DNA of 47,285 nucleotides, from NCBI GenBank assembly GCA_050258015.1, contig JBLMXZ010000093.1:1-47285 (forward strand), given 5' to 3'. The notes under the pieces were generated by a model. The model saw nothing but the letters and a program-made list of their open reading frames with translations. It was not told where the DNA came from and made no database searches. Source of the DNA: Deltaproteobacteria bacterium (GTDB taxonomy: Bacteria > Omnitrophota > Gorgyraeia > Velamenicoccales > Velamenicoccaceae). Position 1 is the stretch's first letter. Each line of letters starts with the position of its first letter. This document shows, one piece after another, positions 6,001-19,931 of this stretch. Both the position numbers and the translations under genes were made by a program.

Positions 6001-9000
6001 ATACTCAAGCTTGACGTTGGCGATAGAGCCGGTCCGGTTCCAGGTAATGGGATGCGAAGAACCCACCTCCCACGCCTCGGTCCCGGCGTTGGGCGACGTC
6101 AGCTCCAGAACGCCCATGATCTTGAAGTTGGCGTTCGAGATGTCGTTGACCGTCGAATCCGTCGTATCCACGACGCGCACGCGGGCCAGGTTCGAGATCG
6201 TGTCCGGGATGGTCCACGGGTAGGTTTCCGCCGAAGCGTCGGTGGAGGCGATGATGGTGTTGGGATAGGTCGAGCCGCCGTCGATGGAGTATTCGAGCTT
6301 GACCGTCGGGATGGAACCCGTGCGCGTCCACGTGATGTCGTGCAGCGACTCCACCGCCCACTGCTCGCTGCCGTTGGGCGCGGTCACGACCAGGTTGCCG
6401 CGGATCTTGAAGTCCGCGTTCGAAGTATCGAAGACCGAGGAGTCCGTCGTGTCCGTTACCTTGACGCGGCACGTCTGGGAACGGTCGTCGGGGATGGTCC
6501 ACTCATAGGTCCCCACGCCCGCGCCGATGGACGCGAGGATCAGGCTCGGATACGTCCCGCCGCCGTCGGTGGAGTACTCGAGTTTGACGTTGGCGATGGA
6601 GCCGGTCTTGGTCCACAGGATGTTGTATTTACTGCCCACGATCCACGCCTCGTTGCCGTTGGGCGCCGCGACCGTGATGTTGCCGCGGATCTTGAAGTTC
6701 GCCTCCGAATCGTTGTAGGCGTCGGTGTTGTTCGCGTCCGAGACGCGCACGCGCAGGCTCGAGGAGATGACGTCCGGGACGACCCACGGGTAGGAGCCCG
6801 TGTTGGGCGTCGAATCGATGATCGTGTTCGGGAAGTTCAGGCCCGAATCCGTCGAATACTCGATCTTGACGTTCGGGGTGGAGCCTATCTTGGTCCAGGT
6901 GATGTCGTGCGAAGAGCCCACGACCCAGACCTCGCCCCCGTCGGGGGAGGTCACGTCGAAACGCGCCTCGATGGAGAAGTCGGCGTTGGAGGTGTCGAAG
7001 ACCGTCGAATCCGAGGCGTCCGCGACGCGCACCCGCACCGCGTTGGAGACGGCGTCGGGGATCGTCCACAGGTACGCCAGCGATCCCGCGGGCGTGGAGG
7101 CGACGACCGGGTTCGGATACGCCTGCCCGCTGTTCGTCGAATAATCGATCTTGACGTTCGAGATGGAGCCCGACATCGTCCAGCTGATGTTGTGCTGGGT
7201 CTGGACCCCCCACTGCTCCCCGCCGTTGGGGGCCTGGACGGTCAAGACGCCGACGATCTTGAAGTTGTTGTTCGACGTGTCGGTGATGGTCGAATCGGTG
7301 GTGCTCGTTATCTTTATCTTCATCGTCGCGTTGATGTGGTCCGGGATCTGCCACGGGTAGCTGCCGGTGGCCGCGTCGGTCGACGCGATGATAACGGTGT
7401 CGTAACTCGTGCCGCCGTTATCGGAATATTCCAGTTTCACGTTCGAGACGGCCGAGCCGTAGCGCGCCCACGTGATGTTCTGGGTCGTGCCCACGCCCCA
7501 GGCCTCCCCGCCGTTGGGCGTCTGAAGGACCACGTATCCTTTGATGAAGAAATTGGCGTCGGACTCGTCCGTTACCAGCGAATCGTTGACGTCCGTTATC
7601 TTGACGCGGACCTGATCGCTGATGGCGTCCGGCACACTCCACGGGTAGGTCCCGGTCAGGCCGTTCGTCGAAGCGACGATGGTGAACGGATACGTCGACC
7701 CGCCGTTCGTGGAATACTCGAGCTTGACGGGCGTGACCGAACCCGCGCGCGACCAGGTGATGTTCTGAGACCCGCCGACGACCCACTCTTCCGTCCCGTT
7801 GGGCACGAGCAGGGTCAGCCGGCCGCGCACGATAAAGGTCGCGTCCGAAACGTCGGCGACCGTGTCGTTCGTCGTGTCTTTGACGCGGACCTTCATGGTG
7901 TTGGTGATGGCGTCGGGGACCGTCCAGTCGTAGTTCTGCGGCACGCCCGAGGCGCCGGCCGCGAGGGTGACGATGTTGACCGTGTAGTCCTCGGTCGCGA
8001 ACGCGTTGGTCGAATACTGCAGCCGCACCTGCGCGAACGTCCCGGTCGGGGTCCAGGTGATCTGATGCGGATCGCCGACGTACCACTCCTCGGTGCCGTT
8101 GGGGGCGTTCACCAGGACCTTGCCTTTTATCTCGAAGACATTGTCCGACTCGTCCCATACCGCGGAGTTGGCGGCGTCGCGCACGCGCACGCGCACGTTG
8201 GTGCCGATGCGGTCCGGGACGCTCCAGGAGTAGCTGCCGTCCGTCGCCGGGACCGTGGCGATGAGGTCGCCGCCTGCATAAGCGCCGCCGCCGACGATGC
8301 CGCCGTTCGTGGAGAAGTGCAGTTCTACGTTCTGCACCGCGCCCGCCTTCGTCCATGTGATCGCGTAGGCGTCACCCACCCGCAGCGAGATGCCCGTGGC
8401 GGAAGGCGTCACGAGCGTCACGGAACCCTTGACGATAAAGTTATTGTCGCTCTCATCCTTGACGCTGCTGTCCGCCGCGTTCTCCACCCGGATAAGCCCC
8501 TGGGTGGTCAAAGGCGTCGAGCCGCTGATGGCCCAATCCCATGTCCCGAGCGACGCATCGACGGCAAGGGTATTGAGCTTGGTCCAACTCGTCCCGTTAT
8601 TGGCCGAGTAATAGATATTAACGGAAGCGATGGAACCCGTCTTGGTCCAGGTGATCGGATACGTCGAAGCCACGTTCCAGGACTCGGTGCCGTCGTTGGG
8701 CGAGGTGACGGTCAAGGACCCTTTTATCTTGAAGTTGCCTTCCGAATCGTCGTAGGCCTCGCTGTTGTTGGGATCCGAGACCCTGATCTTGCAGCTGTTG
8801 GAGATGGCGTCCTGGACCGTCCACGGATAGCTGCCGGTATTGCTCGCCGCGTCCGTTATCGTCGTCCAGCTCGTCCCGTTGTTGGTGGAATATTCTATCT
8901 TGACGTCGGTGATGGCCGAACCCTGCCGCGACCAGGTGATGTCGTAGTTGGAGCCGACGATCAGTATCTCCTGGTCCACCGGGGCCGTGACCGTGAAGTT

Positions 9001-12000
9001 GCCGGCTATCTTGAAGACCGCGTCGGACTCATCGAACACGATGGACTCGTTATCGGCATCGGCGATCTTGATCCTGCAGGTATTGGAGACATGATCCGGG
9101 ACGGGGTTCCAGGCCCACAGCGACACGGATTCCGCATCGACCGTGGCCAGAGGCGTGACGACATAGCCGCTGCCGTAGTCCACGTAGATGTTGACGTTGC
9201 CCACGGTGCCGGTCTTGGCCCACGTGATGTTCTGGGACGTGCCCACGGGCCAGTTGTTGCCGCCGTTGGGCTGCGATACGGTAATGCTGCCCGCGATGCT
9301 GAAGACCTCCGAGAGGCCGTAGACGTTGGGGTTGACCGTGTCGACGATCTTGACGACCACGTTGTTGGAGACGTTGTCGGCCACGCCGTTCCAGTTCGCC
9401 TGGCCGAGGGTCGCGTCGACGTTGTTGGCGATGGTCTTGTCAAAAGGACCCGAGACGCCGTTGGTGGAGTAAAGAAGGTTGACCAGGGTGACCTTGGTGG
9501 AACCGCCGATGTTCCACTGAACGCCGTTGGTATTGTTGGAGCCGACGCGGATGACGGCGCCCAGGCCCGGCGCGGTCACCGTTATCTTCGGCCGGATGGA
9601 GAAGGGCGCGACCGAGACGCTGAAGACGTCGTCGTAGTTGTTGACGTCCGAGACGCGGACATAGCAGGTCTCGGAGTTCAGGTCCGCGACGCTCCAGTCG
9701 TAGGAGTTCGCCCCGGCGGTATGGCCGCCGTGGTTGGCCTCGATGGTCGCGTAGGAGCCGGCGAGCGAGGTCTTGTACTCTATCTTGACGTTGGTGACCG
9801 TACCCGAGGCGTCCCAGGTGATCTGCTTGGTCTCCCCCTTGTACCAGATCTGGCCGGACTCGGGGGCCGTGACGTCGAGGCCGCCCAGGATCGACAGGGC
9901 GTCCGAGGTGTCGCGCACGACGGTCGGCTGGTGGTCGGGGTCGTAGACGCGGACCTTCAGATTGCTCGTCAGGCTGTCGGGCAGGTTGGTCCACTGGTAC
10001 GACTGCTGGACGCCGGTGGCGCCGGCCGGACGCGTGACGTTCAATAAATAGGTAGCGAAGTCGTCCTTGGAGGCCTGGACCTGCACGTTCGTGTAGGTGC
10101 CGGTCGGGGTCCAGAGGATGTTCTCGTTGGTGCCGACGGTCCACTTCTCCGTCCCTGCCGGCGCGTCGAGGGAGATCTGGCCGATGATCTCGAAGGTATT
10201 GTCCGAGACGCCGTAGGCCTCGGAGTTGGCCTTGTCGACGACCTTGATCTTCATGTGCTTGCCCACGATCAGGTTCGGGATGTCCCAGTTATAGGATGCG
10301 GGCGTGGCCGGCACACCGGCCGCGGTCGTGATCTCGTTGGGATACGTCGTGCCGTCGTTGGTCGAATAGTAGATGCGCACGTCGGAGACGGGCCCCGAGG
10401 TCGACCAGGTGATGGCATAGGGGTTGCCCGTGCCGTAGGTCATGACGATGTTGTCCGCCGAAGGCGTCAGGACCGTGATGGCGCCCTTGACCATGAAGTT
10501 CTGGGAGACGCCGTAGACGGTCGTGTAGGCGCCGTCGACGATCTTGAGCTTGGCGCCGGTGGCCGAGAGGATGTCCTGGTCCGTGGGGATGTTCCACTGG
10601 TAGGTGTTGGCGCCGGCCGAGACCGCGTAGCCGGAGGCGACGGTGTAGGCATAGTTGTCCGTGCCGCCGTCCTTGGAGTACTTGATGTTGACGGTGTCGA
10701 TCTTGCCCGTGACGTTAAAGAGGATGTTCTGCTGCGACCCGACGGCCCACTTGGCCGAGGAGGTCGGGGCCGTGACGCTGAGGGCGCCGTGGATCCAGAA
10801 GTTCGAGCTCTCCTTGGCGGTGGCCGGCTGCACGGGGTTGGAGGCCGTCAGGCGGACCTTACAGGTCGTGGCCGCCGTGGTCGAAGGCACGGTCCACGGG
10901 TAGATGCCGGAGTTGGTGGCATTGCTGGCCAGGGTCGACCAGGAGGTGCCGTTGTAGAACTCGACCTTGACCTCGGTGACGTCGGTGCCGGTCGGGGTCC
11001 AGGTGATGTCGTAGGCGTCCCCGGAAGTCAACGGCGAACCGTCGGGCGTCAAGAAGGCGAAGCCGCCGATGATATGGAAGACCGCGTCGGACTCATCCAC
11101 GACGACCGTGGGGTTGTTGACGGCGGCGATCTTGATCTTGCAGGAGTTCGAGACCTCGTCCGGAATGGGGTTCCAGGCGAAGACCGAGACGGTCTCGGCG
11201 TCTATGGGCGACGGGTTGATGGGCGATATCTCGTAGCCCGAGCCGTAGTCCACGTAGATGTTGACGTTGCCCACGGTGCCGGTCTTGGTCCAGGAGATGT
11301 TGCGCGAGGCGCCCACGGGCCAGTCCTCGTTGCCGTTGGGGGCCTGGACGGTGATGCCGCCGACGATGTTGAAGATCTCCGACAAACCGTAGACGTTGGT
11401 ATTGATCGTATCGGCCACGCGCACGACGACCGTGTTCGAGACGTCGTTGGCCACGCCGTTCCAGTTCGCCTGGCCGAGGCTCGCGTCGACGTTCGAAGCG
11501 ATGGTCTTGTCAAAGGGACCCGCCACGCCGTTGGTGGAGTAGGCGATGTTGACGCTGGTGACCTTGGCCGAGCCGTTGCGGCTCCACTGCACCGCATTCG
11601 TGTTGTTCGAGCCGACCCTGATATTGGCGCCGAGGGCCGGGGCCGAGACCGTGATCAAGGGCCGGATGGCGAAGGCCTCGGCCGAAGTCCCGTAAACGCT
11701 GTTGTTGGCGTGGTCATAGACGCGCACCCAGCAATCCTCGGAGTTCTCGTCCGGGACGGTCAGCGGATACGAGTTCGCGCCGTCGGCGTGTCCCGTGTCG
11801 TTCGTCACGATGGTCTTGTTGAAGGAATCGCCGGAGGCGGTCTTGTATTTGATATCGACCGCGCCGATGTTGCCGGTCTCGGTCCACGTGACCTCCTTCG
11901 ACTGCCCCTTGACCCAGACGGTCGTCGCCCCGCTCGGCTGGACGTTCGAGATGCCGCCGATGACCTTGAAGGCGCCCTGGGACACGTCCGACACGGGGAT

Positions 12001-15000
12001 GCCGCCGATGCTCGTCACGCGCACCTTGAGCGTGTCGGCATTGGTGATGTCGTCGATGCCGGGCGTCCACGGATAAGGGCTGTTGGCCGAAGGATAGCTG
12101 GAGGTAATGGTGCGTGTATCGGAGGCGAAGTTGTCGGCGGAGTACTCGATCTTGATGTTGCCTATGGAGCCGGTCTTGGTCCATGTGATGTCGAAAGGCG
12201 TACCGACGGTCAGCGTGTTGGCGCCGTCCGGTGCCGTCAGGTCGATGGAACCTTTAAGCGTGCTGGCCGCGGTCGTCTCGACCTTGACGTCGGGGTTGCC
12301 GGCGTCCACCACGCGGAAATGGACCTGGGAGGAGATGTTGTCCGTCGGGGCCCAGGTCTTGCTCAAGCCCACAACGTCGTCGCCGATCTGCGTCCAGTTC
12401 GTCTTATTATTAAAGGAAACGAAGATGTCGAAAGCCGCGATGTTGCCGAACTTCGTCCACGTGATGTCGTACGGCGTGCCCACCACGAGGGTGTCGCCCG
12501 CGTCGGGATCCGGCGTCGACAGGAAGATGCTGCCCACGATGGCGTTGTCCGTATTCGAGACGTTCTCGTCGGTCGGGTCGGTGGCGCCTATCGGCAGGAC
12601 CTTGACCTTGACCGTGGCCGAAGGCGCATCCGGAATGGTCCAGCTGAAGCCTGTCGTCGGGCCGATGGAGGAATCCAGGTCTTCGGCGCCGGTGATGGCG
12701 GTCCAGACCGCGTGGGGCGCATCCGTGGAATAATACAGGGCCACATGACCCACCTGCCCCGTGCGGCTCCACTTTATCGTATAGGGCGTATTGATCGAGA
12801 GGTTGACCCCGCCGTCCGGCTGGGTAACATCCACCTTGCCCTTGATCGTAAACCAGCCGACGGACTGGTCCGAGACGGCCGAATCGCCGACCTTGGAGAT
12901 GCGCACGATGCATTTGTTGGAGAGCGTGCTGTTGGGGATCTGCCAGTTATAGGTAAGGGCAGCCTTGTCTATTTCGACGATCTCGTAAGGCGCCCCCACC
13001 GGCCAGGTCGATCCGCCGTCATCGGAATACTGGAGCTTGACCAGTTGTCCCGCCGCGAACCCCTTCGTCGTCCACGTGATGGCGTGGAGGTCCCCCACGA
13101 CCCATCCCTCCCCGCCCACGGGAGACCCGAGGGTCACGGTCGGTTTGATCTTGAAATCGGCGACGGAACTGTCCTGGACGGTGATGTCCAGCGCGTCGCG
13201 CACGCGGATACGCACGTGGTCGGAGACGACGGCCGAGCTGTTGGGGATGGTCCACGTGTAACTGCCGGCGGGTCCCGACGTCGACCCTACGACGGCGCCC
13301 GTATAACCGTTGTTACCGCTGTTGGTATCGTAGTCGATGGCGACGTTGGCGATCGAACCCGTCAAAGACCACGTGATATTCAGGTCCGTCTCCACTTCCG
13401 CGGAAAGCTCGGGATTGTTATCCGGGTAGCTCAGGATGACGCCGCCCTTGACCGCGAAGCCCGGGTCCTCCGTGACCGAATTGACATAGGTGCGGTCGGA
13501 GACCTGTTCGATCTTGAGCTTGCCCTGGGTCGTCGGCTGGTTGGGGACCGCGAGGGCATACGGCTGGCTCGTCCCGGCGTCTATCGTGGCCAGGGCCGCC
13601 CCGTACGCGCTGCCGCCGTCGGCGCTGAAGAAGATCTCGATATTACCCAGCGTGCCGGCGTAATTCCACGTCACGTCGATAGGGTCGCCGCCGATATAGT
13701 AGATGCCGCTCGTGGTGGGTGCCGTCATGCTTATCTTGCCTTTGATCGCGAAGCTCTCGGACTCCTTTTGGACCTCGGTCTCGTTGCCGACCTGCGTCAC
13801 CTTGATCTTGTTGTCCGTGCCGATGGTGTTGCGGCCGCCCCACGTCGCGGGAATCGTCCAGGTGTAGCTCTGCGGGCCGCTGGCGCCGGCCTCGCCGCTG
13901 GTGACGGGCAGGTACTCGGCCCCGCCGTTGTCGGAGTAATAGATGTTGACCGTGCCCAGATCGCCGCAGTTCTTCCACTCGATCAGGTGCGTGCTCGGCA
14001 GCGCGGCGCTGTTGACGCGCAGGGCGTCCGTGCCCGTGTTCGTAGAATCCGGCGAGGTGACGACGATCTTTCCTTTGATCGTGAAGTCCTGCGCGGAGGT
14101 GGCAGAGACATAGCTCGGCGCGTTGGCGCTCATGACCTTGACGCGCACGTGGCTGCCGATGGCGTTGGGGACCGCCCAGCTGTATCCGTCGAGGTTGGCG
14201 ATGGCCGCCCCGCCGGCGATAAGCTTATCATAACCGTCGTTGCCGCTGTTGGTGTCGTACGCGAGCTTGACCTGGCTGATGTTGCCGTAGGTATCCCAGG
14301 ATATCTGGTAGCTGTCCGTCGCGTCGTCCGGATCGTCGACCTCGAGGGTCTCCAGGCCGTTGGGTTGCGACAGGACCAGTTTGCCCTGGATAATGAGGGA
14401 ATTATCCGAGACGTCCGAGATGGTGGCGTCGTCGCTGAACTCGACCTTGAACTTGATATTCGCGTTGCGGTCGTTGGGGATGACGTTATCCGGTATGGGC
14501 TGCCACAGGTACGAGCGCGCGCCCGAGCCCGCCGGGTAATCCGTGACGATGGTGTTGTTGTACGGCTCCCCGCCCGTCGTCGAGTAATAGATATCGACCG
14601 AGGAGATGTCGCCCACCGCGGTCCACGTGATCTGGTGGTTGGTGCCGACCTCCCAGGTGGGCGTCCCATCGCCGTTCGACTCGCCCGTGATGGTGATGGA
14701 CCCCTTGATGCTGAAATCATAGGCGCTGGCGGCATAGACCGAGCTTTCCTTGCCGACCTGGTAGACCTTGACGCGCACGTTCGGCCCCACGATGCCGGCC
14801 ACGTCCTCTATCGTCCACTTGTAGCCGATATCCGCCCCGCCGGAAGGAATATTGTCCGAGGCGACGCCGTCGGCGATGAATCCCTGGTAATCGTCGCTGT
14901 CGCCGGGCGTGCCGTTGGCGCCCTTGCCGGAGTTGGTGTCGTAGCGCAGGTTCACCAGTCCGAAGCCCGCCGGGTTCGGCGTCCACTTGATATAGACCTC

Positions 15001-17727
15001 GTCGCCCACCTGATGGCTTATCCCCGTCGCGTTGGGATAGACCAGGACAAGGCTCCCCTCAACGGCGAAGAGTCCCGTTATGCCGCCCGTCCCGCCGTTC
15101 TCGTCCTCATCCCCATCGAGACCGACCCTTACCTTATTGGTCACCCCCATATGCGCCTGGACCGGCGTCCAGTTGAAATACCCCTGGCTCATCGGCACCG
15201 TTCCCAGAAGGATATCGTAGGAGGTCCCGCTGTTCTTGGACAAGCGCACGTTCGCGTCTCCGGAGAAGGTCCCGGTCGGCGTCCACTGGATGGTCTTCTG
15301 CGTCCCCACATGGAGCGTCTCGCCCGCGTGCGGCTCGGTCACCGAGACCAACCCCTTTATCTTAAAATTGTTGTCGCCCTCGTCATATATATAGGTATGG
15401 TCATGGTCCTGCACCCGGATCTTGACCGTATCGCTGATGGCGTCCGGGACCGGCCAGGAGTAGGGGCTCGCGTTCGGGATACCCGCGGGAGGCGTAACGG
15501 TCACCGCTCCCGTTCCCTTGTCGTAGAGGATGTCTACGGTCGTCACGGTCCCCTGCGTCGTCCATTCGATGTCATGGGTCGTGCCCACGCGCCAGACGAT
15601 GCCCGAACCGCTGGGCGTCGTCACGGTCAAGGTCTGCTGGATGGTAAAGTCCGAGCCCGAGGCGTCGCCGACGCTCGGAAAGTCTATGGAGACGACCTTG
15701 ATGCGGGCCTGGGAGGTGCCGGGCGCGGTCGGGGTCCACGGAAAGGGAGACGAGTCCGCCGCGATGCCGGCGGCGATGGTCTCGGTATAGGTGCCGCCCG
15801 AGTTGCGCGACAGCTTGATATCCACGCCGTTCGTCATGAAGGTCGAGCCCTTGACCGTCCAGATGACATCGTTGGATTCGCCTATCTTCCACGTCTGACC
15901 GCCTGTCGGCGCGGATAAGGTGATCTCGCCCGACACCGAGAAGTTGGAGTCCGAGGTATCGTAGACGCGGGACTCCTCGCCCACCTGCTCGACCCTCACG
16001 CGCACCTGATCGCCCAGGGGCAGCGGCCCCGTCGTCCAGTTGATGGCATAAGGGCTGGAGCCCGCGGCGAGGCCCGTGGCGATGGTCGTCGAATAGCTGG
16101 TGCCGGAATTCGTGCTGTACTTGAGGGCAACGGTACGGCCCGTCGTCGGGCCATAGAAGGTCCACTGAATATTCGTCGGGTCTGTATAGGCGATCGTCTC
16201 CCCGCCCACCGGGTAGGTCAAATCCAGCTTGCCGATGACCTCGAAGTTCGCGTCGGAGGTGTCCGAATAATAGGAGTCGTCGCCGCTCGCGTAAGAAGAA
16301 TCCCTCACCTTGATGCGTGTCGTAGCGCCGATGACCGCGCCGTCCGCCGCGGACGGCGTCCACGAATAGCTGGTGCTGCCGGAGCCGCTGTTGGTCACAC
16401 CCGAAGCCAGCGTGATGGGATACGTCCCTCCTCCGTCATTGGAAAGGAGGATGTTGACCGTCGCGACGCGCGCCGGCGCGTACCACGTGATGTCGTGCGC
16501 CTCGCCGCACTTCCACAGCTCCCCGCCGTTGGGCGAAAGGACTTTCATGGGCTCAAGCTGCACGCCGAAATAATCCATGACGGATATCTGGCTATTGTCG
16601 CCCCTCTCGGCGCGTATCGTGGTGTCATTGAGGAATTTGACGGCGGAGCGCGCAACGTCATTGGCCGTCCCGCCGCCGAAACAGTCCAGGGAGCTTACGG
16701 AGAACCGCCATTTGGAATTGAAGCTCCGGGAAAAGCCGAAATCCGCGTAACCGTAGGTGTTGGCGACCTTGGGCAGGAGACCGGAACCGTTCTGGGAAAA
16801 ACCGAGGCTGCCCAGCTCGATACAATAATAATAGATATCGCTCACCCCGCCGATGTTCCTCTTGTTGAAAACGACCGTCAGATCGGACCCGAGCGATCCG
16901 CGCCACCATTGGTCCAAGCTTCCGTCCGACGTTGTAAAGCTGAAGACCAAAAAGGCCTTGCTGCGGTCCACGGCCGTGGACAGGGTGCTGGTGACCATGA
17001 CGTCGCCGGAGGTGGCCTGGACGAGGCCGCACTGGACGGTCGAGTCGTCGCGCAGGTGCACGACCTGATACCACGCGTCGACGGCGTTGGTGGTGCCGGC
17101 GCGCCAGATCTTGATCTGGTCCTGCGTCGGCGCCGTGTTGTAGATGACCTGGGAGGCCAGCTGGATATCGATGATCTGGCCGGCGTTGTTGGAGGCGCAG
17201 TTCGTCGGATACGCCAAACTGAATGTCTTGCCTGAGGGGAAATCGTGGGTGAGGTTGACGGTCGCCGAGGTGGCCCCCACGGAAAAGCTCGCGGTGCCGC
17301 TCTCCACCTCGAAGGCGTCCGACACGACGACGTAATACTTGATGCCCTGGTCCGCCTCGGTGGAAGAGGCGTTGCGCAGGAACTCGATCTGGTTGTTGCT
17401 CGTGCCGCTCTGGGTGGAAGGATTAAAACGCGCGGCCCACGCCTGGTACTTGGGCGTGGTCTGCTGCGTGTAGAAGGTAAAGAAAATGACGGACCGGGTC
17501 GTATCGACGCTCTCCGACAAAGTCTCGAGCTTCTGGCTGAGGCTCTGCGTGCTGAACTCGCCCGAGAAGACGCGCGTGCGCGCCTCGGCAGACCCCGTCC
17601 CCAGGCCGACGATAAAGGCGGCCGCCAGGCACAGCGTTGTGAGGGTCCCCAGGAAGGCCTTGAGTCCGCGTCGTGCCGCTGTGCAACGCAGGGCCGCGCG
17701 CCGGCCGGTCCATGTCAAAGCCTCCAT
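1..17727 (-). CDS. Giant exported repeat protein (fibrillar adhesin-like); only the first 5,909 codons are present, the C-terminus lies beyond the left edge
   Basis: The minus frame whose codons end on coordinates divisible by 3 is open from ATG 17727 (GGTGAGGA just upstream) to base 1. The supplied track has no ORF in this frame, consistent with no in-window stop. Hand translation gives MEALTWTGRRAALRCTAARRGLKAFLGTLTTLCLAAAFIVGLGTGSAEA... (signal-peptide-like) at the start and ...HIGQYRTNTQEIVKIKEDLARI at bases 90-1. G/C third-position bias fits this frame. All long + strand ORFs here are Arg/Gly/Asp-rich mirror frames. Confidence 0.9.
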   Translation of the reverse strand, partial: MEALTWTGRRAALRCTAARRGLKAFLGTLTTLCLAAAFIVGLGTGSAEARTRVFSGEFSTQSLSQKLETLSESVDTTRSVIFFTFYTQQTTPKYQAWAARFNPSTQSGTSNNQIEFLRNASSTEADQGIKYYVVVSDAFEVESGTASFSVGATSATVNLTHDFPSGKTFSLAYPTNCASNNAGQIIDIQLASQVIYNTAPTQDQIKIWRAGTTNAVDAWYQVVHLRDDSTVQCGLVQATSGDVMVTSTLSTAVDRSKAFLVFSFTTSDGSLDQWWRGSLGSDLTVVFNKRNIGGVSDIYYYCIELGSLGFSQNGSGLLPKVANTYGYADFGFSRSFNSKWRFSVSSLDCFGGGTANDVARSAVKFLNDTTIRAERGDNSQISVMDYFGVQLEPMKVLSPNGGELWKCGEAHDITWYAPARVATVNILLSNDGGGTYPITLASGVTNSGSGSTSYSWTPSAADGAVIGATTRIKVRDSSYASGDDSYYSDTSDANFEVIGKLDLTYPVGGETIAYTDPTNIQWTFYGPTTGRTVALKYSTNSGTSYSTTIATGLAAGSSPYAINWTTGPLPLGDQVRVRVEQVGEESRVYDTSDSNFSVSGEITLSAPTGGQTWKIGESNDVIWTVKGSTFMTNGVDIKLSRNSGGTYTETIAAGIAADSSPFPWTPTAPGTSQARIKVVSIDFPSVGDASGSDFTIQQTLTVTTPSGSGIVWRVGTTHDIEWTTQGTVTTVDILYDKGTGAVTVTPPAGIPNASPYSWPVPDAISDTVKIRVQDHDHTYIYDEGDNNFKIKGLVSVTEPHAGETLHVGTQKTIQWTPTGTFSGDANVRLSKNSGTSYDILLGTVPMSQGYFNWTPVQAHMGVTNKVRVGLDGDEDENGGTGGITGLFAVEGSLVLVYPNATGISHQVGDEVYIKWTPNPAGFGLVNLRYDTNSGKGANGTPGDSDDYQGFIADGVASDNIPSGGADIGYKWTIEDVAGIVGPNVRVKVYQVGKESSVYAASAYDFSIKGSITITGESNGDGTPTWEVGTNHQITWTAVGDISSVDIYYSTTGGEPYNNTIVTDYPAGSGARSYLWQPIPDNVIPNDRNANIKFKVEFSDDATISDVSDNSLIIQGKLVLSQPNGLETLEVDDPDDATDSYQISWDTYGNISQVKLAYDTNSGNDGYDKLIAGGAAIANLDGYSWAVPNAIGSHVRVKVMSANAPSYVSATSAQDFTIKGKIVVTSPDSTNTGTDALRVNSAALPSTHLIEWKNCGDLGTVNIYYSDNGGAEYLPVTSGEAGASGPQSYTWTIPATWGGRNTIGTDNKIKVTQVGNETEVQKESESFAIKGKISMTAPTTSGIYYIGGDPIDVTWNYAGTLGNIEIFFSADGGSAYGAALATIDAGTSQPYALAVPNQPTTQGKLKIEQVSDRTYVNSVTEDPGFAVKGGVILSYPDNNPELSAEVETDLNITWSLTGSIANVAIDYDTNSGNNGYTGAVVGSTSGPAGSYTWTIPNSSAVVSDHVRIRVRDALDITVQDSSVADFKIKPTVTLGSPVGGEGWVVGDLHAITWTTKGFAAGQLVKLQYSDDGGSTWPVGAPYEIVEIDKAALTYNWQIPNSTLSNKCIVRISKVGDSAVSDQSVGWFTIKGKVDVTQPDGGVNLSINTPYTIKWSRTGQVGHVALYYSTDAPHAVWTAITGAEDLDSSIGPTTGFSWTIPDAPSATVKVKVLPIGATDPTDENVSNTDNAIVGSIFLSTPDPDAGDTLVVGTPYDITWTKFGNIAAFDIFVSFNNKTNWTQIGDDVVGLSKTWAPTDNISSQVHFRVVDAGNPDVKVETTAASTLKGSIDLTAPDGANTLTVGTPFDITWTKTGSIGNIKIEYSADNFASDTRTITSSYPSANSPYPWTPGIDDITNADTLKVRVTSIGGIPVSDVSQGAFKVIGGISNVQPSGATTVWVKGQSKEVTWTETGNIGAVDIKYKTASGDSFNKTIVTNDTGHADGANSYPLTVPDENSEDCWVRVYDHANNSVYGTSAEAFAIRPLITVSAPALGANIRVGSNNTNAVQWSRNGSAKVTSVNIAYSTNGVAGPFDKTIASNVDASLGQANWNGVANDVSNTVVVRVADTINTNVYGLSEIFNIVGGITVQAPNGNEDWPVGASRNISWTKTGTVGNVNIYVDYGSGYEISPINPSPIDAETVSVFAWNPIPDEVSNSCKIKIAAVNNPTVVVDESDAVFHIIGGFAFLTPDGSPLTSGDAYDITWTPTGTDVTEVKVEFYNGTSWSTLASNATNSGIYPWTVPSTTAATTCKVRLTASNPVQPATAKESSNFWIHGALSVTAPTSSAKWAVGSQQNILFNVTGKIDTVNIKYSKDGGTDNYAYTVASGYAVSAGANTYQWNIPTDQDILSATGAKLKIVDGAYTTVYGVSQNFMVKGAITVLTPSADNIVMTYGTGNPYAITWSTSGPVSDVRIYYSTNDGTTYPNEITTAAGVPATPASYNWDIPNLIVGKHMKIKVVDKANSEAYGVSDNTFEIIGQISLDAPAGTEKWTVGTNENILWTPTGTYTNVQVQASKDDFATYLLNVTRPAGATGVQQSYQWTNLPDSLTSNLKVRVYDPDHQPTVVRDTSDALSILGGLDVTAPESGQIWYKGETKQITWDASGTVTNVKIEYKTSLAGSYATIEANHGGHTAGANSYDWSVADLNSETCYVRVSDVNNYDDVFSVSVAPFSIRPKITVTAPGLGAVIRVGSNNTNGVQWNIGGSTKVTLVNLLYSTNGVSGPFDKTIANNVDATLGQANWNGVADNVSNNVVVKIVDTVNPNVYGLSEVFSIAGSITVSQPNGGNNWPVGTSQNITWAKTGTVGNVNIYVDYGSGYVVTPLATVDAESVSLWAWNPVPDHVSNTCRIKIADADNESIVFDESDAVFKIAGNFTVTAPVDQEILIVGSNYDITWSRQGSAITDVKIEYSTNNGTSWTTITDAASNTGSYPWTVQDAISNSCKIRVSDPNNSEAYDDSEGNFKIKGSLTVTSPNDGTESWNVASTYPITWTKTGSIASVNIYYSANNGTSWTKLNTLAVDASLGTWDWAISGSTPLTTQGLIRVENAADSSVKDESDNNFIVKGSVTLVTPSATGISLRVGDAYAITWTKAGAVQNVELHFSTNGGIVGGGAYAGGDLIATVPATDGSYSWSVPDRIGTNVRVRVRDAANSAVWDESDNVFEIKGKVLVNAPNGTEEWYVGDPHQITWTPTGTFAQVRLQYSTNAFATEDYTVNIVTLAAGASGVPQNYDWTVPDAITNTMKVRVKDTTNDTVADVSDATFIVRGRLTLLVPNGTEEWVVGGSQNITWSRAGSVTPVKLEYSTNGGSTYPFTIVASTNGLTGTYPWSVPDAISDQVRVKITDVNDSLVTDESDANFFIKGYVVLQTPNGGEAWGVGTTQNITWARYGSAVSNVKLEYSDNGGTSYDTVIIASTDAATGSYPWQIPDHINATMKIKITSTTDSTITDTSNNNFKIVGVLTVQAPNGGEQWGVQTQHNISWTMSGSISNVKIDYSTNSGQAYPNPVVASTPAGSLAYLWTIPDAVSNAVRVRVADASDSTVFDTSNADFSIEARFDVTSPDGGEVWVVGSSHDITWTKIGSTPNVKIEYSTDSGLNFPNTIIDSTPNTGSYPWVVPDVISSSLRVRVSDANNTDAYNDSEANFKIRGNITVAAPNGNEAWIVGSKYNILWTKTGSIANVKLEYSTDGGGTYPSLILASIGAGVGTYEWTIPDDRSQTCRVKVTDTTDSSVFDTSNADFKIRGNLVVTAPNGSEQWAVESLHDITWTRTGSIPTVKLEYSIDGGSTYPNTIIASTDASAETYPWTIPDTISNLARVRVVDTTDSTVNDISNANFKIMGVLELTSPNAGTEAWEVGSSHPITWNRTGSIANVKLEYSIDGGSTFPYTIAASVAAAGGTYTWNPVPDNMTTQGRVRVSATTDASVNDVSAADFKIIGKLTVTAPDGGEVWPVGTTQSINWTRVGTLLTAVKIDYSLDGGVTYPNAIVATTAAATGNYPWSVPDAISSSVRVKVTNVDDTNVFDASDANFKIRGDLILSAPNGSEVWLINSNHSITWVKNGSIGNARLDYSTDGGATYPYNITTSVNAALQTLNWVIPDRPSIQVRVKIADAGDATVFDFSDANFTIRGGFTITAPNGGEKWPVGSSQSITWNTFGSIANVKIEYSKNNGTNWSVISNSETNLGTYGWTVPDAISTQCLVRIYDIGDPNAVDVSDAVFKIHGTLNVTAPNGGEQWGVGTAQDIIWTKSGSIANVKLEYSTDGGATFPNLIVNATPAAALTYPWTVPDSISANVKIRITDSTDTDASDVSDGAFKIKGAFLLTAPNGGEAWIVGTTHDIAWTTFGTVGYVKLEYSTNAGTDWNQIVASVANNGTYPWTVPDTISTTCRVRVSDANDSSAWDISNNNFKIRGNLTLTAPNGGEKWNVGSSQVIAWDRVGSIANVRLEYSDNGGATYVPIINQTPNAGTYAWTVPDAITTQARVRVTNYDDSTVTDASNANFKIQGTFVISSPNGGEAWIVGSSHDILWSTSGTINFADLAYSTDGGATYPNGIVTSLGNIGTYSWTVPDNVSGSVRVRVADSSDDEAFDVSNGNFRIRATVILTAPLGGETYKVGSTYNITWTTIGSIPNVKIEYSRFNFLTDINTIAAAAANSGSYPWTVPDRISNTVKVRVSDPNDAGANAVSGSDFRIITGLTVTAPNGGQMWDVGSSHDITWTCTSAQANVPDVKIEYSVDGGATYPYILAATPNDGVWTWDPVPDTISANVKVRVSDLADSTAYDASDSALKIRAKFTLEAPNGGEVWTVAESHDITWSTVGTVANVKLDYSLNDFGAAVPIIASTANDGAHTWTIPDSISTNVKVRVMSIGDTDAYDISDAAFKIRGDLRITAPNGGELWLINQNSAITWVTTGTIANVKLLYSMNSGATYPNTIVASTGNTNSYSWLIPDTATPSARVRIENTSDDTVYDTSDANFRIRGFFTLTSPNGGEEWVVSTAHNVTWVKGGTIGYKLLYSTDSGATYPNTIVTQADPAQNTGSYSWTIPDAISLTARVRIEDPNDAMTNDESDADFTIRGDFAVTAPNGGERWIALETRPITWATNAGTISDVKLEYSKDNFVSDVQTIIASTPNDGSYDWLVPDDRSASVRVRVSDVNDPRVYDVSNAAFTIDYYTITFELRDLLTNEALTNLSAVEKITGTENIVWQASGLTSPVVHEVPYGFYTTSFVATGYGEKALNYDFQDGKTDQAFTLYLETTTVHIWRAYSDFAYEPSTSTSSDALNVTSWLERDGFVVSGATDVTVEIYDGGTLIQTVSDNSPNAAGFFDMRWTPTTLQSGKAYGTITKITNASGAVFKTPGSFQVTEAQRLQDTQKAVEQMRDVTLPAFQTGISTLITDKMDTQENLITDKLDTQAVLITSKMETQTQLITTKMDQQQQIITDKTNLMVSTVNATLSSFETKSQEAIGKLQTGATKAVEAGENLEATAKRYSWKATVSPNPSLPGDLLTFSCQGPTRLTPVLSVYNYDNKAILIEKPMTEKETGLYVYDQLKADTGVFTPGKAYTYVITEPITGGLVSGSGTVESTSITAIAGLAAAAPEAERASKKVLEAVTTLQDVLVSDNAVNIGLALTNLQQSVEELPELLGKQMDKGSQAKLLNQVADRLKTLVGDSEGIDLQSMLEDALGENPTIKEIQSKTEAISGVIKFLSQLFEAKLGGMDTPVVSTSLAPGSVKFRIAVANPSSTRVQTVPVKVYLPAEVKPGDIMDLAGLTLEYDSQKSIYYVYSDGVELAPLESRLFEVEVEDIWFVDKNELASLRKQTEVALERLKNTDYFEAARLIGAQITERLDAIVKSETNDESMSRERHIGQYRTNTQEIVKIKEDLARI
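1325..1490 (-). repeat. Five in-frame 33-nt (11-aa, hendecad) repeats in the post-array coiled-coil region of the giant CDS
   Basis: ggtgatcag-type cores at 1336, 1369, 1402, 1435 and 1468, exactly 33 nt apart. Translation: LITDKMDTQEN LITDKLDTQAV LITSKMETQTQ LITTKMDQQQQ IITDKTNLMVS. Confidence 0.8.
2150..16550 (-). repeat. In-frame array of about 49 tandem ~93-100-aa beta-sandwich (Ig-like; Kre9/KNH-type 'Ser-Thr-rich GPI-anchor family'-like) domains inside the giant CDS
   Basis: Period ~282-300 nt. The + strand motif gccgccgttggg (PNGG on the minus strand), or degenerate versions, recurs near 2392, 2680, 2963, 3243, 3533, 3815, 4097 ... 15908, 16210, 16527 (counted by eye). Verified unit (4693-4983): FKIHGTLNVTAPNGGEQWGVGTAQDIIWTKSGSIANVKLEYSTDGGATFPNLIVNATPAAALTYPWTVPDSISANVKIRITDSTDTDASDVSDGAFKIKG. 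The family name is from memory of the motif pattern, not a search. Confidence 0.85.
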
Positions 17728-17788
17728 GGTCCTCACCTGCCTTTCGGGGCTAACTCCGTTGGGATATTTAAGGCTGTTATCCATCTTC

Positions 17789-18310
17789 CTATTCTTCCTC
17801 GGGCTCCACTTCCTGGGCAAAGGTCACGACCGGCAGCACCCAGTACGCGACCACAACGTCCTTCATCGCCACATCCGGCGCCAGCTCGAACTCGATCAGA
17901 TAGGCATCCGGCTGCTCGATGACCTCTTTGCCCTCCTCGCGCATCTTCTTGCGCATGCCCTTTCTCATGACCTTGGTCAGGTCGAGCGCCGCCGCGCCGG
18001 CCTTCTTGTCGGCGCTGCGCAGGACGGCCTGGCTGCCGGAACCCGGCAGGGCCGTCGCCGGATCGTAGAGCTGATAGAGCTTCTCGATCGCGACCGCGTT
18101 GTACTGCTCGTCCAGGTCCCGCATGTCCGTGGAGCGCACGCGCGCCGCGGCGACCGGGATGCGGGCCGCCTCCCCTTCCGGAAGGGCGATCGTGCCCGGC
18201 GTCACCTGGATGACCATCGCCTTCTTGACGGGTTGCGGCTCTTCGGCGCCCGCCCGCGCCGCCGCGAGGAAAACAGCGGCCAAAGCAAAACAGAAGATTT
18301 TCGTTTTCAT
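17789..18310 (-). CDS. Small secreted hypothetical protein (173 aa) with signal peptide and acidic C-terminus
   Basis: ORF track. N-terminus MKTKIFCFALAAVFLAAARAGAEE is signal-peptide-like. The ATG overlaps the upstream stop as ATGA (18307-18310). The stop lies 61 nt before the giant gene start. No family recognised. Confidence 0.75.
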   Translation of the reverse strand: MKTKIFCFALAAVFLAAARAGAEEPQPVKKAMVIQVTPGTIALPEGEAARIPVAAARVRSTDMRDLDEQYNAVAIEKLYQLYDPATALPGSGSQAVLRSADKKAGAAALDLTKVMRKGMRKKMREEGKEVIEQPDAYLIEFELAPDVAMKDVVVAYWVLPVVTFAQEVEPEEE

Positions 18311-19464
18311 GGTTCGGCCCTCCTGTAATCCATGCTCACAAAAGAGAAATCCTGCGACGCGCCGTCTTGGGCGCGCAGGCTCAAGACACCCTGCATCCGG
18401 CCGTCCTCGACTTCGGCATGCCAGGACCCGGTCGAACCCTTCTCGCTCGTCTGCATCGTCTCCCAGGTCAGGCGGCCGTTCTCTTTTATTAAGGTATAGT
18501 GCGAGGCCGGATACCCGTTGAGCTCCAGGTTCTCCGAGGACATCTTTCCGTCCTTGAACGTGATCTCATCCACGGTCTGAAAGGGCGTGCCCGCCACGAA
18601 TTTGATCTGCCACACGCTGCCGTCCAGCCCCACGATGTCAAAGGGAATGACGACCCGGCCCGCTTCCGGCGCGGATTCTTCAACGACCGCCGAGGCCGAA
18701 TCGGTCCTTCTCTGGTTCTTCTGGTGAGCGTAAAAAAGGACGGAGCCGGCCACGGCCGCCACCACCATGCTCGAGATGAGCGGCAGGACAAGGCGCTTTT
18801 TGCGGGGGGCCGCTTCTTCCGCCTCCGGCTTCTCCAGCATCTCATAGATCCTCTTGGCAAAGTCCTCCGAACCCAGGCAGATCTTGCGGTGGAGCTCCTT
18901 ATGGAACGTGCGCCCCTCCTCCGCAGGCTGCTGTCTCATGTAATCCGAATAGGTTGCGGCCGATAAATGTCCAAGGACCTCCTTGACCTCCTCTTTCATG
19001 TCCACGACCCGCACCCCCTGCGGCGCAAATTCCGTGTAATGGCCGAGGCTGGAATAGGGGTAGTCCGCTTCGCGGCCCACGTGCGAAGGGTTCAGGTGGA
19101 TATAACGGGTCAAGCGCAGCAGATAGGGGTCCTTTTCGATGATCGTGGCGCGATAGCGCCCCCGGAAGAGATGACCCTGGCGGTTGTACTTTTTGTTGTA
19201 ATACTTGGTGTAGGCCGAGGTCAGATTGTGCATGACCTCGGAAAGCGTGCCGCCGCCCGCAGGGGTCTCAAGGAGGAGGTGCAGATGGGTCGGCAGAAGG
19301 ACAAAGGCAAAGAGGCGCGCGCCCTGCTGGGTCTTGTACTTGGCCAGGAGTTCCAGGTAGGCCGCATAGTCTTCGGCATCGCCGAAAAGATTCTGCCCCT
19401 GGATCGCCCGGGTCGTAATATAGTACAAAGCGCCTTCTATGTTTATTCTGGGAGCCCTTGGCAT
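18307..19464 (-). CDS. Membrane-anchored protein: N-terminal RAYT/IS200-like Y1 HUH domain (COG1943-type), one TM helix, ~110-aa extracytoplasmic beta-rich domain
   Basis: HUH motif in LLPTHLHLLLE. GHLFRGRYRATIIEKDPYLLRLTRYIHLNP matches the G-x-lf/w-q-gRY ... rYIhxNP signature, including the catalytic Tyr position. TM segment LVLPLISSMVVAAVAGSVLFYA. SD AAGGA lies 6 nt before ATG 19464. Confidence 0.8.
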   Translation of the reverse strand: MPRAPRINIEGALYYITTRAIQGQNLFGDAEDYAAYLELLAKYKTQQGARLFAFVLLPTHLHLLLETPAGGGTLSEVMHNLTSAYTKYYNKKYNRQGHLFRGRYRATIIEKDPYLLRLTRYIHLNPSHVGREADYPYSSLGHYTEFAPQGVRVVDMKEEVKEVLGHLSAATYSDYMRQQPAEEGRTFHKELHRKICLGSEDFAKRIYEMLEKPEAEEAAPRKKRLVLPLISSMVVAAVAGSVLFYAHQKNQRRTDSASAVVEESAPEAGRVVIPFDIVGLDGSVWQIKFVAGTPFQTVDEITFKDGKMSSENLELNGYPASHYTLIKENGRLTWETMQTSEKGSTGSWHAEVEDGRMQGVLSLRAQDGASQDFSFVSMDYRRAEP

Positions 19465-19528
19465 CTTCTGTCCTTTTTTGCCTTGACTCTTTCCGGTTCC
19501 CTGTTTTCTATTCTTTTTTTATCATTCA

Positions 19529-19570
19529 TGCCTGGCACTTCTTTCATTTTTCTCGTTTTGTGCCTGGCAC
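19529..19570. promoter_or_regulatory. Two copies of the palindrome TGCCTGGCAC (core TGCC-N-GGCA), 32 bp apart, in the 5' UTR between the leader terminator and the first cistron
   Basis: Exact 10-nt copies at 19529-19538 and 19561-19570. Because the core is self-complementary, the two copies can also pair with each other in RNA (10 bp with one central A.A mismatch, 22-nt loop). Confidence 0.3.
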
Positions 19571-19584
19571 CTTGCGCATGCCAC

Positions 19585-19615
19585 AAAAAAAGTCTCAGGC
19601 AAAATTACCTGAGAC
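19585..19615 (-). terminator. Rho-independent terminator in the leader of the RAYT-like/giant-gene operon
   Basis: Minus strand: GUCUCAGG-uaauuuug-CCUGAGAC (perfect 8-bp stem, 19592-19615) followed directly by U7 (19585-19591). It lies 120 nt upstream of ATG 19464. Confidence 0.7.
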
Positions 19616-19619
19616 TTAG

Positions 19620-19765
19620 AAACTAAGTTGCAGTTTCGGCAGCCCAACTATCCGCCAACTTTCTTTGGCGGACTTGTGGCTTTGCGTCCCCAGGTTTCCC
19701 TGCCTCCCTTTCGGGAGTTCTGCATAAAGCAGAGGTTTGCCTTTTCGTACTGCTCCGATCTGTCA
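19620..19765 (-). promoter_or_regulatory. Candidate c-di-GMP-I (GEMM-I)-like riboswitch aptamer
   Basis: Minus-strand RNA contains GGCAAACC (19734-19741) and GGGGACGCAAAGCCAC (around 19678-19691), which I recall as the two hallmark blocks of the class. It also has GAAA-capped hairpins (CUCCC-GAAA-GGGAG, CAGG-GAAA-CCUG). A long P2-like hairpin UCCGCCAA-agaaag-UUGGCGGA is flanked by CCACAAG/AUAGUUGG, which resembles a tetraloop receptor. The terminator follows. The segment between the two blocks is longer than in the textbook example, so the assignment is tentative. Confidence 0.4.
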
Positions 19766-19770
19766 CTATA

Positions 19771-19799
19771 AATATAACATTTTCAGGGGTGTTTTTCAA
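19771..19799 (-). promoter_or_regulatory. Sigma70-like promoter for the leader and operon
   Basis: Minus strand TTGAAA (19794-19799), 17-nt spacer, TATATT (19771-19776). Confidence 0.5.
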
Positions 19800-19813
19800 T
19801 GCTTCACCGTCCT

Positions 19814-19848
19814 CCCCTTTTCGGGTGCCCTTCGGATGCCCTTCGGGC
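19814..19848. promoter_or_regulatory. Three direct 11-bp repeats phased one helical turn apart, immediately upstream of the -35
   Basis: + strand ccccttttcgg / gtgcccttcgg / atgcccttcgg (19814-19846). Minus strand CCGAAGGGCAt CCGAAGGGCAc CCGAAAAGGGG. Confidence 0.3.
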
Positions 19849-19931
19849 TAACAAACAGCAAAAAATACGCCCCAACTCTTCTTTGAGCAAGAAGTTATGC
19901 GTTCCTTGCCGTTAAGCGGCGTTTTTCTGCC

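Follow-up and report, generated by a model that had tools for sequence, protein, structure and literature searches.

A predicted c-di-GMP-I riboswitch with a four-way-junction first hairpin in the leader of an Omnitrophota giant-gene operon

Introduction

The Omnitrophota are a phylum of bacteria that are uncultured and for the most part ultra-small. They carry giant genes, tens of kilobases long, which are suspected in attachment to or predation on other cells, and to our knowledge nothing is known of how these genes are regulated. The locus described here raises the question of whether the RNA leader ahead of such a gene is a riboswitch for cyclic di-GMP (c-di-GMP) and, if it is, in which direction it would act. 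The locus lies on a contig of 47,285 nucleotides (nt) [GenBank accession number JBLMXZ010000093.1, assembly GCA_050258015.1], deposited as a Deltaproteobacteria bacterium and placed in Omnitrophota by GTDB; the whole contig is referred to below as the window. An initial annotation of the window had proposed a c-di-GMP-I-like (GEMM-I-like) aptamer and an intrinsic terminator in the leader of a giant-gene operon, with the caveat that the two conserved blocks are separated by about 40 nt containing extra hairpins, which could mark either a variant or a coincidence. On comparative evidence, the leader of this three-gene operon is likely to be a class I c-di-GMP riboswitch that controls the intrinsic terminator, with a weak lean towards an ON logic.

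Results

Assignment of the leader aptamer to the c-di-GMP-I family

In a scan of the whole window against 4,227 Rfam families at their gathering thresholds, the sole match was RF01051 (c-di-GMP-I) at 19751..19635 on the minus strand. With 48.5 bits, where the gathering score is 35, and E = 1.5e-6 over the whole window, the match covered the full model (positions 1-87). A search with this covariance model and an analysis of covariation in homologous leaders were among the checks named in the initial annotation; the score lies above the threshold, and the same aptamer is found with compensatory changes in the orthologous Omnitrophota leaders, which bears out the identification. For c-di-GMP-II (RF01786) there was no match in the window at the gathering threshold, and none in 19400-19900 even at E ≤ 10. 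The model of the c-di-GMP-I-GGC variant (RF03167) reached 43.1 bits in a permissive scan of 19400-19900, under its 59-bit threshold, and the window reads GCAAA where that variant is marked by G at the A47 position (GCGAA).

The aptamer including P1 is located at 19635..19753, an assignment that draws on the RF01051 match, the orthologues and covariation. All leader and operon features described below are on the minus strand, and descending coordinates are read 5′ to 3′. The two conserved blocks reported initially are present, GGCAAACC at 19741-19734 and GGGGACGCAAAGCCAC at 19691-19676. P1 is formed by GCAGU (19753-19749) with ACUGC (19634-19630) and, across a 1-by-2 internal loop, by CG (19747-19746) with CG (19638-19637), which is the geometry of P1 written in the RF03167 consensus. 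The first hairpin has the features expected of the family in modified form, namely a GC/GC 2-pair helix, an AAA internal loop, a 7-pair distal stem composed of two parts (a stub and a hairpin, H3, see below) and a GAAA loop. An AAA linker leads into P2, which has a bulged A and an AG bulge (GCAAAGCC-A-CAAGUC ... GAU-AG-UUGGGCU). The P2 hairpin (AGCC-A-CAAGUC ... GAU-AG-UUGGGCU, 19641..19681), with a variable distal stem-loop, corresponds to the long hairpin with internal loops described at the outset (19681-19641), and is followed by the GCCGAA tail (19640-19635). The aptamer is in a 5′ regulatory position with an expression platform, on the same strand as the downstream gene. The initial identification of the leader aptamer is upheld, and the aptamer is predicted to be a new member of an established class of riboswitches, c-di-GMP-I/GEMM-I.

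Covariation supports the proximal part of P2. Across 15 leaders, with the variable distal part of P2 swapped for GAAA, 96% of cells are paired and 7 of 10 pairs have changed on both sides, against 16-41% of cells paired in controls with slid partners. One part of the original description did not hold. It had named a GNRA tetraloop/receptor pair among the marks of the class, and P2 has no canonical GNRA receptor of 11 nt; in the cmscan alignments, the window and all of its Omnitrophota relatives have deletions in the receptor columns. About half of GEMM-I members have a receptor and it is not needed for membership (Weinberg 2007). The tertiary contact of the form found here would differ from that of the type 1 form, in which the receptor occurs.

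Orthologous leaders in Omnitrophota

Relatives of gene 1, the first gene downstream of the leader, were found at 75 loci in the species-representative genome set; loci are given L numbers where they need to be told apart. Nearly all full-length relatives are in Candidatus Omnitrophota genome bins, and the closest are labelled 'uncultured Planctomycetia'. Of 16 loci scanned with Rfam, 10 have an above-threshold match to RF01051 or to a member of its clan immediately 5′ of the gene 1 homologue. L015 carries the aptamer just downstream of the gene 1 homologue, which encodes a protein with a Y1-like domain, bringing the loci with an aptamer to 11 of 16.

The order of genes in the orthologous loci is the same, with the Y1-like gene followed by a small secreted protein and a very long open reading frame (ORF) that runs off the locus. 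The promoter, aptamer, terminator and ORF are all on the minus strand of the window, and this order is kept in orthologues, where the leader reads aptamer, terminator of the CCAGGC/GCCUGG type, one or two palindromes (AAGUGCCWGGCACUU) and start codon. Most Omnitrophota relatives have the combination of aptamer, terminator and palindrome ahead of the orthologous gene. The elements are placed differently in two loci: in L015 (5364-5446) aptamer, terminator and palindrome, and in L005 (5417-5427) a palindrome with no other element seen, lie between the Y1-like gene and the small secreted-protein gene. This placement suggests that the regulated core may be the small protein and the giant gene.

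An inserted two-hairpin module forms a four-way junction

The caveat of the initial annotation concerned the region between the blocks. The spacing is 41-42 nt and is filled by three hairpins, and in place of the 10-nt stem-loop tip of the consensus the cmscan alignment has an insertion of 41 nt. H1 (CUGC-UUUAU-GCAG) is at 19732-19720, H2 (CUCCC-GAAA-GGGAG) at 19717-19704 and H3 (CAGG-GAAA-CCUG) at 19702-19691, the last two being the GAAA-capped hairpins noticed previously. The stub, of 3 pairs, is formed by CCU (19735-19733) and the GGG of its 3′ strand (19690-19688). H1 and H2 together (19704..19732) form a two-hairpin module that is inserted into the first hairpin of the aptamer, on its 5′ strand. 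When the 30 nt comprising H1 and H2 are removed, the remaining sequence, GGCAAA-CCUCAGG-GAAA-CCUGGGG-ACGC, gives a normal 7-pair stem with a GNRA loop, and in a MAFFT alignment H3 is aligned with the canonical hairpin of the relatives. The stub would stack on H3, reproducing the 7-pair stem and GNRA loop with the position of the tetraloop kept, so that the binding core would fold normally.

Among Omnitrophota leaders, the insertion is limited to the window and its close relatives L004 and L008, followed by the metagenomic loci L083, L085 and L112; the others have a canonical 6-pair stem with a GUAA, GAAA or GUGA loop. H2 differs between the window and L004 and L008 by three compensatory pairs (CUCCC/GGGAG to CCGCG/CGCGG). 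The loop of H1 is variable in the close relatives, and that of H3 is always GNRA.

A metagenome scan with the pattern GGCAAACC-N28-58-GGGGACGCAAAGCC recovered 46 loci. When these were folded one by one, about 30 had the same three consecutive hairpins within a CC(U)/GG(G) stub, and the third loop was GNRA in 27 of 28 distinct sequences with this architecture. Approximately 12 of the 46 were left out of the subtype, as they are canonical aptamers that lack the insertion and carry a second GGCAAACC upstream. Canonical aptamers with a second exact copy of GGCAAACC about 20-25 nt on the 5′ side were seen in L078, L082, L087, L092, L093, L095, L101, L102, L114 and L119, and this copy might serve as a decoy or as another 5′ strand. 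Some of the four-way-junction c-di-GMP-I aptamers occur as tandem pairs, in L081 (2727-3024), L097 (7882-8108) and L106 (1224-1492).

An independent covariance model (R1) was built from 16 longer members, with the window and its clade excluded. This model found the aptamer of the window at full length with 55 bits (E ~1e-9), and gave an additional aptamer match in L003. In an alignment of 31 sequences, 91.9% of cells are paired, compared with 72.5% after shuffling and 33-46% with the partners slid, and 17 of the 23 pairs have changed on both sides (7 of 8 in H1, 7 of 7 in H2 and 3 of 4 in H3). The alignment was fitted to the model, so the structure is somewhat favoured in these figures; the per-sequence folds, which are independent of the model, agree with it. 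Rfam detected 8 of 12 four-way-junction loci above the threshold, and the subtype therefore falls inside the RF01051 family. Judged by these comparisons, the four-way junction is real and recurrent rather than a mark of coincidence, and the doubt attached to the region is resolved in favour of a covariation-supported insertion that occurs in about 30 other sequences. No earlier account of a GEMM-I with a four-way junction came up in a literature search, though this search was limited and does not prove that there is none.

Promoter, terminator and the polarity of the switch

Upstream of the aptamer is a predicted sigma-70-type promoter (19771..19799), as first proposed, with TTGAAA as the -35 element (19799-19794), a 17-nt spacer and a TG-extended TATATT as the -10 element (19776-19771). 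Ten of the 12 hexamer positions match the consensus, in addition to the TG ahead of the -10. Both hexamers are invariant in L004 and L008 and the spacer is variable; the promoter scan returned 2 sites where 0.6 were expected. Transcription is predicted to start near 19764. On the 5′ side of the -35 (19846-19814), CCGAAGGGCA occurs twice and is followed by CCCGAAAAGGGG; these are small GAAG/GAAAA-capped hairpins or repeats, and are absent from L004 and L008.

The intrinsic terminator (19585..19617) has a stem of 12 pairs closed by a loop of 4 nt (19617-19590), together with seven consecutive U residues (19591-19585). The stem consists of 10 Watson-Crick pairs, then U-G and A-U. The U7 tract is as originally described, and the stem is longer than the 8 pairs it had been given. 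A terminator is present at the equivalent position, just 3′ of the aptamer, in all orthologous leaders. The 191-nt leader as a whole folds with z = -5.9 relative to dinucleotide shuffles; this figure, the E-value of the RF01051 match and the promoter count all exceed what chance would give. No public sequencing run, of RNA or DNA, could be listed as containing the stretch.

Two further hairpins are found between P1 and the terminator. Hairpin A (GAAACUG-CAACU-UAGUUUC, 19619..19637), a proposed anti-antiterminator, uses the 3′ strand of P1 and excludes P1. It is part of the minimum-free-energy folds, and in six relatives its stem is invariant and 4 of the 5 loop positions are variable. P1-excluding hairpins analogous to A were also identified, partly by inspection, in L009-L013. 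Hairpin X (ACUUAG-UUU-CUAAGU, 19614..19628), a proposed small antiterminator, overlaps the base of the terminator with its 3′ arm. This small hairpin had been reported initially (19628-19614) as sharing 2 nt with the terminator, which is correct for the 8-pair core, and 4 nt are shared with the full stem. The 5′ arm of X falls within the loop and 3′ arm of A, and the bottom four pairs of the terminator use the 3′ arm of X. P1, hairpin A, hairpin X and the terminator thus make up a chain of mutually exclusive helices.

This chain suggests a mechanism. Binding of c-di-GMP would lock P1 (GCAGU/ACUGC), and locked P1 would block hairpin A (GAAACUG/UAGUUUC). Hairpin X (ACUUAG/CUAAGU) would then be freed to occupy the bottom pairs of the terminator beside the U tract, and the outcome would be read-through into the operon, that is, an ON switch. 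In the ligand-free RNA, hairpin A would form and X would be excluded, and the full terminator would bring transcription to a stop near 19585. The complementarity between the linker and the terminator arm that is expected of an ON-type hairpin had a combined p of 0.03 over 11 leaders.

ON polarity is the weakest step of this explanation and is favoured by a narrow measure of confidence, the weak lean coming partly from a prior on the control of adhesin and pilus genes. Riboswitches of the GEMM type located 5′ of such genes are usually ON. Several findings weigh against the ON scheme or against the riboswitch reading that underlies it. The full terminator is obtained by equilibrium folding whether the RNA is constrained (bound-like) or left unconstrained; such folding does not tell ON from OFF, and any regulation must therefore be kinetic. 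Hairpin X is weak: the full terminator has -18.0 kcal/mol, and X with the shortened terminator only -15.3. In L004 and L008 the stem of X contains a U-U mismatch, and in the leaders of L009, L011 and L015 no clear equivalent of X is seen. The tetraloop receptor is missing, and the tertiary contact is an inferred one. Finally, a rival antiterminator composed of ACCU-GGGAC and the terminator 5′ arm (-11.9 kcal/mol) would have the opposite polarity.

The last of these is the basis for reading the leader as an OFF switch, which is the less probable of the two polarities. In the absence of ligand the terminator 5′ arm (AGUCUCAGGU) would pair with the aptamer strand ACCU-GGGAC (19695-19686, or CCU at 19735-19733 with GGGAC) to form an antiterminator, and hairpin A would sequester the 3′ strand of P1. 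With ligand, the aptamer would be locked and the terminator arm freed, and transcription would stop. In the window and all close relatives, no upstream segment pairs better with the arm than this strand, which forms 9 pairs. The 3′ strand of the first hairpin again gives the best pairing in L002, L010 and L013, but other lineages have their best partner elsewhere. The complementarity has p = 0.018 when the arm itself is shuffled but only p = 0.12 when the upstream sequence is dinucleotide-shuffled; the statistical support is weak for this pairing and for the ON-type hairpin alike. As long as the 3′ arm has yet to be transcribed, both the rival pairing and hairpin A are part of the unconstrained minimum-free-energy fold, at -59.0 kcal/mol, but this is only 0.3 kcal/mol better than the fold without the pairing, with slightly different transcript lengths compared, and the pairing must invade a local helix that has already formed. 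In L076, the hairpin in competition with the aptamer shares sequence with the terminator arm, which reads as OFF logic. Coexistence of aptamer and terminator is known from Cd1, a c-di-GMP-I riboswitch with OFF polarity. On the other side, the control of adhesin-like genes is usually ON.

Predicted ligand

The ligand of the aptamer is predicted to be c-di-GMP rather than cyclic GMP-AMP (cGAMP), as the nucleotides that contact the ligand in Vc2 have canonical equivalents here. By alignment, G20 corresponds to G19741, A47 to A19683 and C92 to C19639, and the inter-helix pair C44-G83 to C19686 and G19648. The mapping of Vc2 to model positions was inferred from the Rfam alignment and is robust, since neighbouring candidate positions carry the same bases. 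Position 20 is reportedly A in GEMM-Ib, the cGAMP-binding form, and the window has G (G19741).

An aptamer that senses another cyclic dinucleotide, such as 3′3′-cGAMP as in GEMM-Ib, or a different ligand altogether, with the four-way junction reflecting a changed specificity, is improbable. Such a possibility is raised by the peripheral architecture, which is unusual, by the fact that GEMM-Ib aptamers were long annotated as c-di-GMP-I, and by the A found at the G20 equivalent in one orthologous leader, L013. Against this, the window keeps G, A and C at the equivalents of G20, A47 and C92, the insertion is peripheral and distant from the binding-site junction, and relatives with a canonical first hairpin have the same core sequence. 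The L013 aptamer (3779-3875) reads AAAUA-GC-AAACC and its inner P1 pair is compensated (CA/UG); it is a candidate for a switch to cGAMP-type specificity inside the same operon family.

A chance resemblance or decayed relic, with control exerted by the terminator and a binder of the GUGCCWGGCAC palindrome alone, is very improbable: the palindromes are as well conserved as the aptamer, and the full-length orthologous loci L014 and L050 have no aptamer at the Rfam threshold, but the score in the window exceeds that threshold, 11 of 16 related loci have an aptamer (10 in the orthologous position), compensatory changes are found in every helix and the binding-site nucleotides are intact.

The leader palindrome and the Y1-like protein

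Two copies of the palindrome GUGCCAGGCA(C) are located between the terminator and gene 1, at 19570-19560 and 19539-19528 (within 19528..19570). A half-site, UGGCA, is at 19583-19579. The palindrome is confined to the leader in the window and in the related loci, and one or two copies of AAGUGCCWGGCACUU lie between the terminator and the start codon in L002-L011, L015, L050 and L076. In L006 and L007 the flanks differ, yet they lengthen the hairpin to 14-17 pairs, which points to a single-stranded hairpin (RNA or single-stranded DNA) and not solely to a double-stranded operator. Two other readings of the palindrome were rejected. For a sigma-54 promoter (TGGCAC), the central W is not conserved in orientation and there is no -12 GC at the right spacing; a dispersed REP-like repeat was set aside for the window on account of the confinement to the leader.

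Gene 1 (18307..19464) encodes a protein of 385 amino acids with a Y1 (IS200-like) transposase-type N-terminal domain (PF01797, E = 4.9e-9), one membrane segment and a conserved C-terminal domain. When the orthologues L003-L015, L050 and L112 were aligned, the HUH motif was found to be lost in several, reading RLE in L006 and L007 and KVY in L014 and L050, and seven orthologues have H or Q in place of the catalytic Tyr of RYIHLNP. The Y1-like domain looks like a domesticated, non-catalytic one, and may bind the hairpins of the leader palindrome (GUGCCAGGCAC).

Operon genes and genomic surroundings

The genes of the operon are closely packed. Gene 2 (17789..18310) overlaps gene 1 by 4 nt and predicts a protein of 173 amino acids with a signal-peptide-like N-terminus; an equivalent is present in the orthologous loci. 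The third gene is the giant gene (1..17784), which begins at an ATG at 17784 or 17727 and runs off the end of the window after more than 5,900 codons. The giant-gene operon of the initial annotation is thus borne out by a stop-free minus-strand frame from 17823 to position 1 (5,941 codons) that continues past the window end. The predicted protein has repeated matches to Ig-like (Kre9_KNH) and Reelin-subrepeat-B-like sequences. The list of ORFs supplied with the window omits frames that run off it, including this one. The giant plus-strand ORFs at 4933-10047 and 10255-15918 were rejected as arginine/glycine-rich antisense artefacts of the minus-strand gene in DNA of 62% G+C.

Upstream of the leader, a cluster for synthesis of a polysaccharide or O-antigen-like structure extends over 20163-43828 on the minus strand. 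Pfam matches in this cluster include GT4, PIG-L, an ExeA-like AAA_22 ATPase, WbqC, radical SAM/SPASM, DegT and a methyltransferase, as well as GT1/GT9, a flippase, Wzy_C and a GNVR/AAA_31 chain-length regulator.

Discussion

If the proposed scheme is correct, c-di-GMP would be the signal that turns on giant surface proteins thought to mediate host-cell attachment or predation. A conserved c-di-GMP riboswitch ahead of a giant-gene operon would be a concrete and testable regulatory input. One of the papers on Omnitrophota giant genes reports PilZ genes downstream of them and GGDEF domains within many of the encoded proteins; with these, a c-di-GMP riboswitch upstream would be a coherent addition. 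The four-way-junction first hairpin can be viewed as a natural experiment in which a peripheral helix is elaborated and the tetraloop geometry and binding core are kept.

Two novelties are put forward tentatively. One is a four-way-junction subtype of GEMM-I. The other is a composite leader conserved in the phylum, made up of a c-di-GMP aptamer, a terminator and GUGCCWGGCAC hairpins, that would gate the giant-gene operon, with the Y1-like domain of the first gene product, in many cases catalytically dead and joined to a membrane anchor, perhaps binding the hairpins. The value added by the analysis would lie in the structural subtype, which is well supported, in the phylum-wide tie to giant-gene operons and in the conserved palindrome beside a domesticated Y1-transposase-like gene. 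Even if nothing extends past annotation, the result is still useful, as the leader has been rightly assigned to a familiar class of riboswitches.

Comparison with known systems

The structural reference for RF01051 is Vc2 from Vibrio cholerae. The window resembles it in the GC/GC two-pair helix, AAA internal loop and GNRA-capped distal stem of the first hairpin, in the AAA linker and P2 and, by alignment, in the equivalents of G20, A47 and C92 and the C44-G83 pair. It differs from Vc2 in the 30-nt two-hairpin insertion that gives the four-way junction, in having no 11-nt receptor in P2 and in a platform that is a transcription terminator.

GEMM aptamers that lack the tetraloop receptor reportedly go by the label 'type 2'. 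The aptamer of the window is likewise without the 11-nt receptor in P2, and its relatives have GYRA loops (GUAA, GUGA, GCAA); receptor-less aptamers are part of the original GEMM description (Weinberg 2007). The first hairpin in that description is a 2-pair plus 6-pair stem with a GNRA loop, and the parts of it available to us do not mention a four-way-junction form (Weinberg 2007).

With respect to the expression platform, the nearest counterparts are Cd1 from Clostridioides difficile, an OFF switch, and pilM from Geobacter metallireducens, an ON switch for cGAMP. Both are like the window in that the aptamer is followed by an intrinsic terminator and that the competing helices involve the 3′ strand of P1. 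The terminator of pilM overlaps the aptamer directly, whereas the window has the two small hairpins A and X placed between its P1 and its terminator. Cd1 has an antiterminator formed by the 3′ strand of P1 and the terminator arm, in place of which the window has hairpins A and X. The pilM aptamer, which we take to have A at position 20, differs there from the window, which has G.

The word riboswitch is absent from two accounts of Omnitrophota giant genes (West-Roberts et al. 2023 preprint; Seymour et al. 2023) and from a 2026 preprint on Omnitrophota genomes. Some of the giant proteins were named Archaeovorins in the first of these (West-Roberts et al. 2023 preprint). The giant gene of the window is like those described in its very long ORF, its adhesion-type repeats and the small number of domains that can be annotated (West-Roberts et al. 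2023 preprint; Seymour et al. 2023). It differs from the published loci in its surroundings, as the upstream cluster is one for polysaccharide synthesis and not for type II secretion.

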